DNA from: a virus | Taxonomy: Duplodnaviria; Heunggongvirae; Uroviricota; Caudoviricetes | Strand: one strand, 5' to 3' | IMG/VR virus record: IMGVR_UViG_2563366937_000005 | Span: 1 to 36,493 of that record | DNA: 36,493 nucleotides | Shown: positions 1,331 through 17,904 of the stretch, in pieces | Layout of the letters: every line of letters starts with the position of its first letter | Position numbering within the stretch: position 1 is the stretch's first letter | Notes under the pieces: generated by a model | The model's database searches: none | Told to the model about the DNA's origin: nothing | Seen by the model: the letters and a program-made list of their open reading frames with translations, nothing else | Made by a program: the position numbers and the translations under genes

Positions 1331-1377
1331 TCCACCGTGATTCACGTTCGTGAACATGTCCTTTCAGGGCCGATATA

Positions 1378-1453
1378 GCTCAGTTGGTAGAGCAGCGCAT
1401 TCGTAATGCGAAGGTCGTAGGTTCGACTCCTATTATCGGCACCATTAAAATCA
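1378..1453 (+). tRNA. thrW: tRNA-Thr (anticodon CGT), thrW; 3' end carries the prophage attL core
   Basis: 76-nt sequence GCCGATATAGCTCAGTTGGTAGAGCAGCGCATTCGTAATGCGAAGGTCGTAGGTTCGACTCCTATTATCGGCACCA folds as a cloverleaf: 7-bp acceptor stem GCCGATA/TATCGGC, anticodon loop TTCGTAA, T-loop TTCGACT, 3' CCA encoded. The integrase gene stops 6 nt downstream. Confidence 0.9.
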
Positions 1454-5424: not shown

Positions 5425-5984
5425 TTTGCTGCTCCTCATCATATCGACCCTGCAAGGTCGGTTAGTTTCTCCACAAAACAGAGAAGAACACCTGCGGTGG
5501 CAGCCGCCCGGATGGATTGGGTTATGAGCCCGTCGTCCGGTGATGCTCTTCTCTGTTTTGTAAAAAGAGCGGTACCAGCCGGAAGCAAGGGTACAAACTG
5601 GTACCGCCAGGACTACACACAGCATAAAGTTGTGGTGCCGGGTGCCTCCCGGTGCCTGGCGAAGGTTGCACACCAGGCGGGTGGGTATCCACAGAAGGTC
5701 GACTGTCAGCCTCAACCTTAACCCGCGTGCGCTGAGCCGCATTCACCACAACGCTAAGAATTCTCTCTGGTTGAAAATACTTAGCTGTTATGTGCCTGCT
5801 TTTAGCCACATCAGGCGAGGTGGACCTGGTTATTCCCCAACAACAAGGATTCGGTTAATCTGGTTATCCCCAACAACAAAAGGATTTTTTTTATGAAGTG
5901 CAATGGCTATGAAGAGCGGCACATGCCTCCTTACAAGAGGCCAGAACCACCGCCAAAACCTGATGATTCAGACTGAGGTGAAAC
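5425..5984. promoter_or_regulatory. Large structured GC-rich non-coding region between divergent early genes; probably holds the leftward early promoter/leader
   Basis: No convincing ORF (the track ORFs here are Pro/Gly/Arg-rich low-complexity); 15-bp near-perfect inverted repeat caaaacagagaagaa (about 5473-5487) / ttcttctctgttttg (about 5548-5562); several further GC stems (ggtaccag/ctggtacc, ccggg/cccgg, cctgg/ccagg); two direct repeats at 5826-5885. Confidence 0.5.
5826..5885. repeat. Two direct repeats CTGGTTATyCCCCAACAACAA(A)GGAT about 34 bp apart, followed by a T8 run
   Basis: Read directly at 5826-5850 and 5860-5885, just upstream of the plus-strand gene at 5985; candidate regulator binding sites. 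Confidence 0.5.
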
Positions 5985-12746: not shown

Positions 12747-12763
12747 TTTTGTGGAGAAAGTTG

Positions 12764-13108
12764 ATGCGTGATATGTATGAAGTTTTAGACCGCTGGGGAG
12801 CGTGGGCTGCAGCAGATAACAGTGGTGTGGACTGGCAGCCGATAGCAGCAGGCTTTAAGGGGCTTTTACCTCATGGTAAAAAAATACGCCTTCAGTGTGA
12901 TGATGATGAAGGCATCATGATAGACGGCTGTGTTGCCCGCTTGTGTAAGTATAAACCAGACGAATATGAGCTGATCATTGCTCACTTCGTTATAGGTATT
13001 TCACTGCGTTCTATTGCGAAGAGACGCAGATGCTCAGATGGAACAATCCGGAAGCAATTGCAGACTGCGTTAGGTTTCATTAATGGGGTTATGTACATGC
13101 TCAAGTAA
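12764..13108 (+). CDS. Late-gene antiterminator Q (QuuD-like)
   Basis: Start at ATG 12764 (GGAG plus 7-nt spacer); MRDMYEVLDRWGAWAA...IAAGFKGL...CDDDEGIMIDGCVARL...CSDGTIRKQLQTALGFINGVM parallels DLP12 QuuD (VLERWGAWAA...IAAGFKGL...CCDDDAMIICGCMARL...CSDGYIGKRLQKAEGIIEGM, from memory). Confidence 0.75.
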   Translation: MRDMYEVLDRWGAWAAADNSGVDWQPIAAGFKGLLPHGKKIRLQCDDDEGIMIDGCVARLCKYKPDEYELIIAHFVIGISLRSIAKRRRCSDGTIRKQLQTALGFINGVMYMLK

Positions 13109-14327
13109 TATTTGGCATTAATTTAAATAAAATACCGATGATGCCTATGAATGTAGGCATCCATGCTAGTGATAATAAACTGTCAAGCACCTTATGACAA
13201 AAATCCTCATTGTCATTTAATTTTTTAATAGCCTCTTCTAAGCTCTCTTTAAGATCGCTGGTGTCATCCTTTATTCTATATCTTAATTGTCCAAAAAGTA
13301 TTTCTTTAGAGTGTGAAATACGAGCGAGTTGTTTTTTTTGTGACACAATCATTGCAGATGTTATTATTGCTGTGATAATCAATCCAATTAAAGCAATAAT
13401 CCAATCAGTTTTTGTTGTTAATTTGAAAATAGCAATTGAACCAGCTAGTGAAATAGGTATTGCAAGAGCTTTGTTAGAAATTTCTGAAATTATTTTTGAC
13501 AGTTTTTCTGAGTAATCGAGTTCAGCATCAACAACTTCTTTCCTTGCTTTATGAAAAGAAAATGCCGACATATAAGCAGCTAAGTTGTTCGTATAAAGTT
13601 CGCATATGAAATCCCACTTGTTAATTAACTCGACAAAGGAATTTCCATTTTTATTAACATACTCAATAACTGTGTTTCTGAAAGTGTTAATCTTTTCAAT
13701 GTGATGGGCATCAGTAGTAGCTTCACTACTTACTAATGTTTTAACTAACTGAGTATTTACTGTTTTATCATTAAAAATTTCTTCTGTAATATTTGTTTCA
13801 ATTACAGCAGAAGAAGATTTAGACTCTGAGTTTAAAATAAAGACTAAACGATAAAATGTACCTTTGCTATCTTTTTTTATATCATGGAAATGAGCAAGCA
13901 TGGAAAGAGCATTGATTAGCTCACAAATGTCCTCAATTTTTTGGATATAAGAAGGTTTTGGTGTTTCTAATGAATAGAAATCATCCTCTATAATATAGAA
14001 ATACTCTGGCATTATGCCTTTCTTGAGCGTGTTTATTTTTACAAACTCGTTTTTATTTTTATAAAAACGATTCGCACTTCCTTGTGAAATTTTAAACGAG
14101 TATGTAAGAAAATTTCCCTTTTCAGGAAAGTCTTCATAATCATAAATTAAATGACCATCCACCTCTATTTCGTCAGCTGTACCAGCTTGAAAAGTAGGGT
14201 TCAAAATTCTTTTGAACAATGATTTTACGTCTGCATTATAAGCTATACGCGCAGAAAACTTAGCCCCGTCAAAATGAGGATAGCTTGATAATCTATACAG
14301 ATTAACTATTATACTAAAATCATTCAT
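13101..14327 (-). CDS. Hypothetical 408-aa protein with two C-terminal transmembrane helices (second gene of the AT-rich cassette; candidate membrane effector)
   Basis: ATG at 14327 overlaps the upstream gene stop (ATGA); about 285-aa soluble N-terminal region with no motif I recognise; hydrophobic helices LAIPISLAGSIAIFKL...WIIALIGLIITAIITSAMIV and LLSLAWMPTFIGIIGILFKLM; 3' end overlaps the convergent Q stop by 8 nt; strongly AT-rich. Confidence 0.6.
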   Translation of the reverse strand: MNDFSIIVNLYRLSSYPHFDGAKFSARIAYNADVKSLFKRILNPTFQAGTADEIEVDGHLIYDYEDFPEKGNFLTYSFKISQGSANRFYKNKNEFVKINTLKKGIMPEYFYIIEDDFYSLETPKPSYIQKIEDICELINALSMLAHFHDIKKDSKGTFYRLVFILNSESKSSSAVIETNITEEIFNDKTVNTQLVKTLVSSEATTDAHHIEKINTFRNTVIEYVNKNGNSFVELINKWDFICELYTNNLAAYMSAFSFHKARKEVVDAELDYSEKLSKIISEISNKALAIPISLAGSIAIFKLTTKTDWIIALIGLIITAIITSAMIVSQKKQLARISHSKEILFGQLRYRIKDDTSDLKESLEEAIKKLNDNEDFCHKVLDSLLSLAWMPTFIGIIGILFKLMPNIT

Positions 14328-15472
14328 TCTTTATCTTCTTCATTACTCGGGTTATCAGTTTCTTTCAACGCTCTTCTTATCTTAGTTAATGCTTCAACAG
14401 GCAAATTATTAAATGTTAGGCTTTGGTTTTCGTCATCATAATATATTTTAGCATCAGTTGTGACACCGAGTAAATCCTTGTCGAAGTGAAAGCTCAATGA
14501 TGGGGTTTTATATATCACATTGCGGATTTTATCTAAGGAGTTTTTATTGATTACGAACTCTGATGGGATTCTGACTTCCTCACTATTGAGGTGTTTCATT
14601 AATTTATCAACAAGTTCTGTTTTTTCTTCCTCTTTTAAATCGGACATATGGCCTGAAGCAAGCGATTCGATATCAGAAAGCCTTGCAGAGTGCTCGTTGT
14701 CAAATTGCTTTTCTAAGTATTTGATAACATCATTTCTAAATGACTCTGCTTGATTTTTTAAAAGAGGTTCTTTCTTAAAGAAACGCCTTATTTCATCTGG
14801 TAACTTACGGGTTGCACCTGCTGAAGCAATCCCCTTGTCACATCCTAATGCTGCTATAAAATATGCTGCCGCTGACTGTCCCGTAGTTTTGCTTATAAAG
14901 CTTAGATAACTTAAGTCTGTTTTTTTTAAGTCATCTGCTTTTTGGTATTCTTCATAATATCTGAAATTTATTTTTGCTGCTTGGTTAATATTGCCAAGTT
15001 CTAAGTGAATCATTTCCTCTGGCTCTAAATTTTCACTAATAGTTACGCCATTAGTTTTTTTGATCATTGTAACCAATAGATAACGGAAACCAGATAAAAT
15101 ATAATCAGTAAAAACAACATATCCTCCAGAAGCCCAAATCTGCTCTTGAGCAGATTTATACATTTGTTTCATAACTTCCTTCGATAATTCAATGAAATCA
15201 CTTGAAACAGATTGTTGAACTAAAGAGTATTTATGAAATAGTTCTGGTATAGGGCCTTGCTTTGTTTTATTTTTAATAAAAACACCATAATGCGCTGAGT
15301 TCCCTTTTGAACCATACAAATCAATAACACCGTCTACTAATTTTTTTACTATATCATTTGTTTTATCTAGTTCTGTATCACGAAGATTGTATGGTTTGGA
15401 GTGATCGAAGTCTTTATTAGATTCTTTTAAGAGCTCATGAACGATTACGTGGCGTATGCTTACTTTGCTCAT
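14324..15472 (-). CDS. NdpA/YejK-like nucleoid-associated protein homologue (NA37 family) (first gene of the AT-rich cassette)
   Basis: Start probably at the second ATG ([14 protein letters not shown], compare YejK MSLDINQIALHQL); the track ORF begins 18 nt upstream at 15490. Similarity to YejK along the whole length, e.g. [22 protein letters not shown] vs [36 protein letters not shown] vs [32 protein letters not shown] vs RYLTFLKGRVGRKVADFF, C-terminal [18 protein letters not shown] vs LTIKGTPPNLRDQLQRR (YejK from memory). Confidence 0.6.
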   Translation of the reverse strand: [382 protein letters not shown]

Positions 15473-15506
15473 TTTTTTGGTCAATTCCATGCGGTTAAGC
15501 TAACAA

Positions 15507-15556
15507 TTGTAAAGAGCATAATAAATTACTAACGCGTACGCAAAAACTATCATAAT
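15507..15556 (+). promoter_or_regulatory. Candidate late promoter (P_R'-like) upstream of the lysis cassette; the same interval probably also holds the divergent promoter of the minus-strand cassette
   Basis: -35-like TTACTA (15526-15531), 16-nt spacer, -10-like TATCAT (15548-15553) / CATAAT (15551-15556); followed about 35 nt downstream by an intrinsic terminator hairpin. Hexamer assignment is tentative. Confidence 0.3.
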
Positions 15557-15588
15557 CTGTTAAGAGTGGTTACTTCGCCACACAGCTT

Positions 15589-15620
15589 AAACCCGCGTCG
15601 AGCGGGTTTTGTCGTTTCTG
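15589..15620 (+). terminator. tR'-like intrinsic terminator between the candidate late promoter and the holin gene (expected target of Q antitermination)
   Basis: Stem aaacccgc/gcgggttt with 5-nt loop gtcga, followed by a TGTCGTTTCT U-rich tract. Confidence 0.4.
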
Positions 15621-15761: not shown

Positions 15762-16088
15762 ATGCCTCATAACCCAAATACCTGGTTGGAGTTGGTCCAG
15801 AGCTGGTGGCGTGGAGACACACCGTTGGGCGCAGTGATTATGTCGATTGTTATGGCTGGCTTGCGCATTGCATATTTTGGCGGTGGTGGGGGCTGGAAAC
15901 GAAAAACGCTCGAGATTTTGCTCTGTGGTGCTCTGACGCTGACTTTTGCATCCGCTCTTGAGTATGTCGGATGGCCTAAATCTCTTTCTGTTGCCATTGG
16001 TGGTGGCGTTGGGTTGATCGGTGTCGATGCTATTCGTGGGGCTGCAATGAGAGTAATCGGTAATAAGTTTGGTGGTTCTAAGGAGTAA
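15762..16088 (+). CDS. Holin (lambda S-like class I topology)
   Basis: 108 aa, three hydrophobic segments, Gly-rich turn (YFGGGGGWKRK), charged C-terminus; immediately upstream of the endolysin. Confidence 0.6.
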   Translation: MPHNPNTWLELVQSWWRGDTPLGAVIMSIVMAGLRIAYFGGGGGWKRKTLEILLCGALTLTFASALEYVGWPKSLSVAIGGGVGLIGVDAIRGAAMRVIGNKFGGSKE

Positions 16089-17101: not shown

Positions 17102-17466
17102 CTCGAGTTATATTTTTCATTATCAGTGCGAATGCGCCTAATAAAGCTGTGTATTATGATAATTTTATAAAACTTATGGGCTTAAATTCAGACGCCAGCG
17201 TTTTTATAGTGTAATGTAGCAGCTTACATAAAATATGCATCGTGATTAACTATTAGTCCAACCTTTTGGACCAATATGAAAGTGGAAGTTTGTACAAATC
17301 GTTTGTAGATGATTAAACATGTGTCTAGTAGAGCTAGTCATGAACAGGTTTATTACGTATCATTTTGTTTAGATTATCGAGAGTACAACTAGTAGAGCAG
17401 CTAATCTTTAGATAGTGCCAGTGATGTTCACTTACGATAAACTAACCTTTTCATTCAGTGGAGGTT

Positions 17467-17904
17467 ATGATGTGGCATACATTACTTAACTGGCCTTGGG
17501 GAACTGTGTGGTCAGCTGTATCGGCTTTAGGTTCAATTGTAACTGTTACATTAGGTTTTTGGGCAATGAATGTTTGGCGGCGACAGGAGGCTCTGAAGGC
17601 CAAAATGGCTCTGAAAATGGCAGTGGCTGATTATTCAAATGCATTATCACAGCTACCTTTATCTCTTAGTCGTAATGTTCGTATTGAAAAAAGGGCCGAG
17701 CTACGAGAGTTAAGCCATAAATTAAATGCTATTAATAATGCTTTTTTGATATGCGAACATATGTTGGAAAAATACCCACGTGTAAACAGCGGTTGTCGTT
17801 CTTTATCTGTTGCCCACAAAGAATATATTAGAATGAGAGATAATAGTATTCAGGCGAAATATATTTGTCATAATATTCTTTCAGAACAGTTTGTATTCAA
17901 ATGA
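17467..17904 (+). CDS. Hypothetical single-pass membrane protein (about 145 aa) in an AT-rich moron between the lysis and packaging modules
   Basis: GGAGG directly upstream of tandem ATGs (the track ORF starts at GTG 17458); N-terminal TM helix (WGTVWSAVSALGSIVTVTLGFWAM); preceded by a 356-bp AT-rich non-coding region. Confidence 0.45.
   Translation: MMWHTLLNWPWGTVWSAVSALGSIVTVTLGFWAMNVWRRQEALKAKMALKMAVADYSNALSQLPLSLSRNVRIEKRAELRELSHKLNAINNAFLICEHMLEKYPRVNSGCRSLSVAHKEYIRMRDNSIQAKYICHNILSEQFVFK

Follow-up and report, generated by a model that had tools for sequence, protein, structure and literature searches.

Anti-phage systems in which a relative of the nucleoid-associated protein (NAP) YejK is encoded together with a second protein were described in 2025–2026, namely DS-1 (PMC13092281) and type II PANGU (bioRxiv 10.64898/2026.04.06.716658). 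A comparable gene pair is present in the sequence analysed here, a stretch of 36,493 nucleotides (nt) that makes up IMG/VR virus record IMGVR_UViG_2563366937_000005 (hereafter the window) and that corresponds to an Escherichia coli prophage. The pair consists of a gene of the NA37/YejK family and, directly downstream, a partner gene for a putative membrane protein, both on the minus strand of an AT-rich island (13101-15520). We consider it probable that the two genes constitute an anti-phage defence operon of the DS-1/type II PANGU kind, and its carriage by the temperate phage as accessory cargo that benefits the lysogen is the best explanation of the data. As far as the sequences allow a classification, the pair is a putative prophage-borne subfamily of this defence class, with a partner already flagged by a published screen. 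An earlier note on this DNA, which drew attention to the NA37 gene, overlooked that the class of system had already been described and validated, both for DS-1 (PMC13092281) and for PANGU (bioRxiv 10.64898/2026.04.06.716658).

DS-1 (D390, DefensePredictor) comprises in E. coli the protein WP_000355468.1, which contains a zinc ribbon and a YejK domain, and the hypothetical protein WP_000150292.1. Cloned in E. coli MG1655, the system protects against phage Bas1 by 7.6 logs, against Bas26 by 2.7 logs and against Bas3 and T3 by 1.7 logs (PMC13092281). The partner protein of the window is identical to RefSeq WP_016159279.1, which the same study lists as a 'Predicted novel defense gene' with a log-odds score of 13.05, a machine-learning prediction (PMC13092281).

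Type II PANGU, described in a preprint of April 2026, combines the YejK-like NAP Pag2A with Pag2B, which carries an acidic, DNA-mimicking domain ('DMK') at its N-terminus and a transmembrane (TM) domain at its C-terminus. Both genes are required for defence, neither gene alone nor the pair is toxic, and the phenotype is abortive infection. In the model of the preprint, the sensor resides on the host nucleoid and is released once the phage degrades the host DNA: a fusion of Pag2A with green fluorescent protein (GFP-Pag2A) leaves the nucleoid upon T4 infection, Pag2A binds the acidic DMK domain with a dissociation constant (KD) of 19 nM, and T4 escapes the system via mutations in EndoII. The two PANGU systems studied acted on T4 or Bas34, but gave no protection from T1 and T5. 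Type II PANGU is described as widespread across phyla and as spread by horizontal transfer (bioRxiv 10.64898/2026.04.06.716658).

Comparison of the window pair with DS-1 and type II PANGU

Like DS-1, the window pair is a two-gene operon in which the gene for the NA37/YejK-domain protein comes first and is directly followed, on the same strand, by a gene for a hypothetical protein of about 400 amino acids (aa) that is homologous to the second DS-1 protein (DS-1B). The NA37 protein matches the NCBIfam model DS1_1_antiphage with 99.1 bits (E=2.6e-28) and the partner matches DS1_2_antiphage with 100 bits (E=1.5e-28, profile positions 31-336 of 337). BLASTP alignments to the published DS-1 proteins have E-values of 9e-11 and 8e-11 at identities of 24% and 22%, respectively, and DS-1B is matched by a profile of the partner family with E=7e-20 over profile positions 88-387. 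Judged from these scores, both window proteins are distant, below-threshold homologues of the DS-1 proteins. The BLASTP alignment to the first DS-1 protein (DS-1A) begins only at residue 71 of the window NA37 protein. The hydrophobic segments of DS-1B are weaker than those of the window partner, none of them exceeding a Kyte-Doolittle threshold of 1.6, whereas three TM helices are predicted in the window partner.

The architecture of type II PANGU, a bicistronic operon with an intergenic gap of less than 40 bp that encodes a YejK-like NAP and a protein with a C-terminal TM domain, is also that of the window pair, with an overlap of 4 nt and three predicted TM helices; the net-negative N-terminal region of the window partner may correspond to the acidic domain of Pag2B. 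The window copy is prophage cargo, whereas the word 'prophage' occurs 0 times in the text of the PANGU preprint.

The overlap of the NA37 stop codon with the partner start codon (ATGA) implies that the two genes form one operon, and the same overlap makes it probable that their translation is coupled. The association extends far beyond the window. At every fetched locus of a partner homologue, an NA37 gene is located directly upstream on the same strand; as a genome-contig scan with narrow back-translated patterns returned only 11 loci, this pairing rests on about 20 independent loci and not on hundreds. It holds for partners at 24-69% identity, and in all related loci the two genes are spaced by -35 to +30 nt or thereabouts. 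The bacterial hosts comprise E. coli, Shigella, Salmonella, Pectobacterium, Serratia, Ewingella, Pantoea, Xenorhabdus, Providencia and Proteus; the remaining loci come from a P2-like prophage (CP046902.1), from metagenome contigs, from Klebsiella phage P7641 and from a Pseudomonas plasmid. A functional link between the NA37 protein and the downstream membrane protein, for which the earlier note had proposed an interaction test, is the option that the evidence favours.

The identities of the two proteins to those of the window drop together, and in each of the 15 non-identical pairs it is the partner that has diverged further, by 0.6-25 points. The NA37 and partner genes are inherited as a unit, since they co-diverge and since at two loci both have decayed: in Shigella flexneri (L017) both are truncated or disrupted, and in a Pantoea symbiont of Euschistus servus (L024) both are present in fragments. 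In Serratia marcescens (L002/L003) the NA37 gene is frameshifted or split beside an intact partner gene. Another setting is that of a distant pair (NA37 protein 32% and partner 25% identical) at positions 48844-51240 of the conjugative Pseudomonas putida plasmid p716811-VIM (L031), about 2 kb from a NACHT-domain gene and in surroundings that resemble a defence island.

The island is present at a coverage of at least 80% in 30 of 5,426 complete E. coli genomes, and near-identical proteins of the pair occur in Shigella, Citrobacter and Salmonella. A near-identity DNA search (megablast) of phage records returned only the conserved right flank (15515-15600) and not the island; at the protein level, a search of phages gave one match, Klebsiella phage P7641.

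Properties of the two proteins

The 388-aa product of the NA37 gene matches the Pfam family NA37 (PF04245) with 172.3 bits (E=2.3e-50), residues 16-364 being aligned to profile positions 1-321 of 325. This score lies above the curated gathering cut-off of 24.6 bits and the alignment spans the full length of the profile, which places the protein in the family. The protein also matches phrog_3767, 'nucleoid associated protein' (E=1e-98). A phmmer search of the PDB sequences finds a single solved structure, E. coli YejK (9be2_A; E=3.4e-15, residues 10-372). The same structure is the one significant Foldseek match in the PDB (E=4.2e-16, probability 1.00) of an AlphaFold2 model that was built from an alignment of 34 homologues and has a mean predicted local distance difference test score (pLDDT) of 79. 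The model shows the two-domain YejK fold over its full length, with a template-modelling score (TM-score) of 0.45-0.51 against 9be2 and a large root mean square deviation, which in the predicted structure probably reflects the orientation of the domains. Both motifs named in the earlier note are present, as VHEL at residues 17-20 and as a GG-containing central block at residues 121-142, and H18, E19 and G122-G123 are invariant among the 34 family members. The proposed homology to YejK is thereby borne out, and neither of the two outcomes named beforehand as grounds for abandoning it, a failure to match any NA37 profile or a different fold, was observed.

The NA37 protein is only 21% identical to YejK and scores 134.8 bits against the YejK equivalog model (NCBIfam NF001557), which has a cut-off of 341 bits. 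Its gene has a GC content of 33.5% (32.1% for the island) as opposed to 52.2% in the remainder of the window, and the GC content at third codon positions is 0.275 versus 0.46-0.47 for the flanking genes, those for the antiterminator Q and the holin. Because of this low identity, the missed equivalog cut-off and the difference in GC content, the gene appears to belong to an old, diverged lineage and not to be a copy of the host yejK, in agreement with the description in the earlier note as highly diverged and AT-rich. Translation probably starts at M7 (ATG at 15472), giving a protein of 382 aa, since RefSeq annotates M7 as the start and this residue is conserved to at least 90%, in contrast to residues 1-6.

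Mutagenesis of YejK has shown that DNA binding depends on its pore residues R173/R176/K177 and R276/R280/K284 (PMC11229321). YejK is a stand-alone, abundant chromosomal NAP, whereas the window NA37 gene is paired with a membrane-protein gene, and at the aligned positions of the window protein five of the six tested pore residues are non-basic. The remaining position is occupied by K316, which is K or R in 31 of the 34 family members. Other basic residues near the aligned pore positions are K201, K321, R323 and K328.

The 408-aa partner protein matches phrog_5023 (E=7.5e-139), and a Pfam search with it matched no family. Its AlphaFold2 model (pLDDT 84) contains an alpha/beta domain of approximately residues 1-200, followed by long helices. 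TM helices are predicted from hydropathy at residues 287-305, 310-328 and 383-401, and a prediction of three such helices recurs in close and distant homologues. Residues 1-285 have a net charge of -8, and 137 of 137 diverse representatives of the family carry a negative net charge in their N-terminal 285 residues (median charge -12; median identity to the window partner 27%). P291, Q330 and P391 are conserved across these representatives, and together with K286 they are the most conserved polar or kink residues of the family, located in or beside the membrane segments. A family profile made from 28 homologues and searched against 1.84 billion representative proteins retrieves 998 proteins at E <=0.001 and 197 at <=1e-30, nearly all of which are full-length matches of about 400-430 aa.

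A role of the partner as an enzyme was considered and rejected: H146, D149, R217 and E222 are invariant in close relatives but not across the 137 representatives (67% for D149, 65% for E222), and no enzyme signature was seen in the conservation pattern of these representatives. Foldseek against the PDB gave no match of the partner model at E <=0.001, and no fold assignment is claimed; weak recurrent similarities, none of them significant, are to the CorA channel and to pore formers of the ClyA type.

Proposed mode of action and alternative readings

By homology and analogy, drawing on the PANGU preprint and on the anatomy of the locus, a mode of action can be proposed for the window pair. The NA37 protein would form a YejK-like dimeric clamp on the host nucleoid, from which it would be released when a superinfecting phage degrades or disrupts the host chromosome. 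The free protein would then bind the acidic N-terminal cytoplasmic region of the partner, the three-helix membrane module of the partner would damage or depolarise the inner membrane, and the infected cell would cease to support phage growth, resulting in abortive infection. Whether this entire chain, from nucleoid clamp to abortive infection, applies to the present subfamily is, in our estimate, evenly balanced. A departure of the subfamily from the PANGU model, with a trigger other than host-genome degradation, a partner that acts as a CorA-like gated channel or an alpha-pore former and not just as a membrane-tethered DNA mimic, and an off switch controlled by the phage, is unlikely. Another trigger would be possible because most of the YejK pore residues are replaced in the NA37 protein, and an off switch because the operon lies antisense between Q and the late leader, where read-through from the early genes could silence it at induction. 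Such a switch, if it exists, would allow the phage to protect its host from competing phages at no cost to its own growth.

Several observations weigh against the assignment of the pair to the DS-1/type II PANGU class. The equivalog cut-offs of the DS-1 models (NF053868 and NF053869) are missed by a wide margin (99.1 vs 330 and 100 vs 315 bits), and the NA37 protein is about 21% identical to DS-1A, the same value as for YejK, and is thus no closer to the one than to the other. DS-1A furthermore carries an N-terminal CxxC...CxxC zinc ribbon (MDITCLECG...CDKCG), which the window NA37 protein does not have. A search of both proteins against PADLOC 2023 gave no match beyond a chance-level similarity to DrmC (E=0.059). 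The likeness to Pag2A/Pag2B is drawn from their described architecture. As regards the mode of action, DS-1 and the PANGU systems were scored against different phages; nucleoid binding by the NA37 protein is assumed, because only one of the six YejK pore positions is basic (R276, aligned to K316); the net-negative charge of the partner's N-terminus only weakly indicates DNA mimicry; and the preprint itself leaves the activation step of Pag2B open (bioRxiv 10.64898/2026.04.06.716658). Finally, the promoter scan found no minus-strand sigma-70 consensus site in the non-coding region upstream of the operon.

The nearest competing explanation is a defence pair with a different trigger, in which the NA37 protein directly detects the DNA or a protein of an incoming phage, instead of reporting the loss of host nucleoid DNA, and activates its partner. 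The phage ranges permit this, as DS-1 performs best against Bas1, Bas26, Bas3 and T3 while the two PANGU systems studied acted on T4/Bas34 and not on T1 and T5, so that triggers may differ, and the loss of most basic pore residues would allow a changed ligand. A structural parallel could be sought in the Kiwa system, in which the membrane protein KwaA is paired with the soluble, DNA-associated protein KwaB. After YejK, KwaB is the second-best Foldseek match of the NA37 model, a weak echo that is not significant (E=0.2, probability 0.15); a kinship with KwaB was rejected on this ground, and the likeness to Kiwa is one of logic only, a membrane protein with a DNA-associated protein, without a sequence relationship to the window pair. 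Nothing in the data indicates that the ligand is phage DNA or a phage protein, and the only study to address the mechanism of this architecture favours release from the nucleoid (bioRxiv 10.64898/2026.04.06.716658), which makes recognition of a phage component rather improbable. The suggestion in the earlier note that the protein could be a defence sensor stands as far as the sensor role is concerned, which is favoured here; its proposal that incoming DNA is sensed does not agree with the sole experimental model, that of release when the host DNA is degraded.

The earlier note had also drawn an analogy to Pnd of plasmid pCAR1. On a reading of this kind, the NA37 protein would be a xenogeneic nucleoid protein that coats or organises phage or host DNA and tunes prophage expression, the downstream gene being functionally unrelated. 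Family and fold agree with this, the island is AT-rich, and NA37 genes are frequent on Pseudomonas plasmids (203 plasmid records), Pnd itself being an NA37-family protein on a mobile element with 27.5% identity to the window protein. Pnd is, however, annotated as a YejK equivalog, whereas the window protein stays below the equivalog cut-off, and the pnd gene is located 2.4 kb from an HU gene and lacks a downstream membrane partner, whereas the window NA37 gene overlaps one, a pairing found at every locus examined. Among the open reading frames (ORFs) of the two-gene island (13101-15520) there is none for an H-NS-like or HU-like protein, which, together with the constant membrane partner, sets the window gene apart from one for a stand-alone YejK-type NAP that acts with partners of these two types. 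As equivalog status, membrane partner and HU context all differ, Pnd is not the closest analogue of the window protein. The joint decay of both genes in L017 and L024 and the position of the pair in a hotspot of validated or predicted defence cargo likewise argue against a Pnd-like role, which is very improbable. The analogy is accordingly not supported, and no result of this analysis supports the remodelling of the host nucleoid that had been offered as an alternative function.

Equally improbable is a contribution to the lytic cycle of the phage itself, either as an accessory module for lysis or membrane timing or as a superinfection exclusion system that blocks DNA entry. The pair adjoins the lysis cassette, the partner is a predicted membrane protein, and there is a faint match to a holin PHROG (E=0.098). 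The orientation of the pair opposite to the late operon nevertheless means that late transcription cannot express it; unrelated cargo occupies the slot in sister prophages, from which it follows that the pair is dispensable for lysis; and copies of the pair are known apart from any lysis cassette, as in Proteus near icd, in the P2-like prophage and on the plasmid beside the NACHT gene. That the two overlapping genes form a toxin-antitoxin or addiction module that stabilises the prophage, with the potentially toxic membrane protein as toxin and the NA37 protein as antidote, would suit their location on a mobile element. The type II PANGU genes are, however, non-toxic singly or paired and are both needed for defence, and the viable Serratia genome with a frameshifted NA37 gene beside an intact partner argues against an essential antidote; an addiction module is hardly to be expected here.

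If the favoured defence operon is active, a temperate phage equips its host with an alarm for nucleoid integrity, and the pair would offer a second natural system, native to E. coli, in which to study the activation of a membrane effector by a released nucleoid protein. The subfamily is common, as judged from the 30 E. coli genomes and the 998 representative partner clusters mentioned above. The partner family has no Pfam or PADLOC 2023 model and the DS-1 NCBIfam equivalogs overlook the subfamily; because these models miss it, the RefSeq labels of the two proteins go no further than 'nucleoid-associated protein' and 'hypothetical protein'.

Prophage setting and possible expression of the operon

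The prophage lies beside a tRNA gene downstream of proA. From left to right, the window contains the integrase and early genes, a DUF968 gene, Q, the minus-strand island with the pair, a conserved leader with a terminator-like hairpin, the holin, endolysin and Rz genes, and the terminase and structural genes (Table 1).

Table 1. Positions of the gene pair and of further features in the window
Feature	Position	Strand	Basis
Antiterminator Q gene, left flank of island	12749..13108	+	Pfam Phage_antitermQ, E=5e-44
Partner gene, putative membrane effector, 408 aa	13101..14327	-	ORF; NCBIfam, phrog_5023, AlphaFold2, TM prediction
ATGA overlap, NA37 stop codon/partner start codon	14324..14327	-	Read from sequence
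NA37/YejK-family gene, putative nucleoid-bound sensor	14324..15490	-	Longest ORF, 388 aa; Pfam, phrog, sequence and fold matches to YejK
Upstream non-coding region, inferred site of the island's own promoter	15491..15560	-	Sequence read; inference
Strong terminator-like hairpin (AAACCCGC...GCGGGTTT, then T run), right edge of island	15589..15609	+	Terminator scan
Lambda-family holin gene, right flank of island	15762..16088	+	Pfam Phage_holin_3_1, E=5.7e-25
tRNA gene	1369-1441	+	
STnc100 small RNA family	5560-5782	-	Rfam, 47.2 bits
148-aa ORF	17458-17904	+	

The interval between Q and holin (13101-15560) is a variable slot. Sister E. coli prophages with the same flanks (L027, L028 and L029) hold other minus-strand cargo at this position: one set consists of a metallo-beta-lactamase (MBL)-fold hydrolase and WP_001024069.1, a protein of the validated DS-42 system, and the others of an SDH-family Clp-fold serine protease and of a TIGR04255 protein with two hypothetical proteins. 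Prophages of Pectobacterium and Salmonella, as well as Klebsiella phage P7641, have the pair itself in the same slot. Further defence cargo could be sought in this compact Q-holin interval of such prophages. At the Salmonella enterica loci L009/L010, the lysis-Q slot with the pair also contains a DUF6037 gene, immediately upstream of the pair; the prophage that carries these loci is widespread, its NA37 protein being found on 895 contigs.

The stop codon of Q overlaps the convergent 3' end of the partner gene by 8 nt, and no terminator-like site is present between the two converging genes. Read-through from the early operon would for this reason run antisense to the defence operon, and upon prophage induction read-through from Q may damp it. 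On the right side, the plus-strand stretch 15515-15609 is 85-98% identical in phages SfII, SfIV, cdtI and Stx2a and ends with the hairpin, upstream of the holin gene. Because of its location in this conserved stretch, the hairpin is probably the terminator of the late-operon leader, and the stretch probably the late-promoter leader; the promoter scan found no consensus promoter within it. We infer that the operon is transcribed from a promoter of its own, antisense to the early and late phage operons, which would make expression in the lysogen possible. Its placement antisense between Q and the late leader would fit expression in the lysogen and possible silencing by read-through at induction. 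The scan yielded 12 sigma-70-like sites, which at 10.2 expected is chance level. A candidate promoter picked by eye upstream of the operon matches the consensus hexamers at 8 of 12 positions only, and no promoter is claimed.

The tRNA gene lies between proA and the prophage integrase gene, is a tRNA-Thr gene in a near-identical record and is likely to be the attachment site. In the early region, the match to the small RNA family STnc100 just exceeds the gathering threshold of 47 bits. Between Rz/Rz1 and the HNH/terminase genes, a second AT-rich patch (about 36% GC) contains the 148-aa ORF, which matches no Pfam family, is listed as hypothetical in RefSeq and may represent further accessory cargo.

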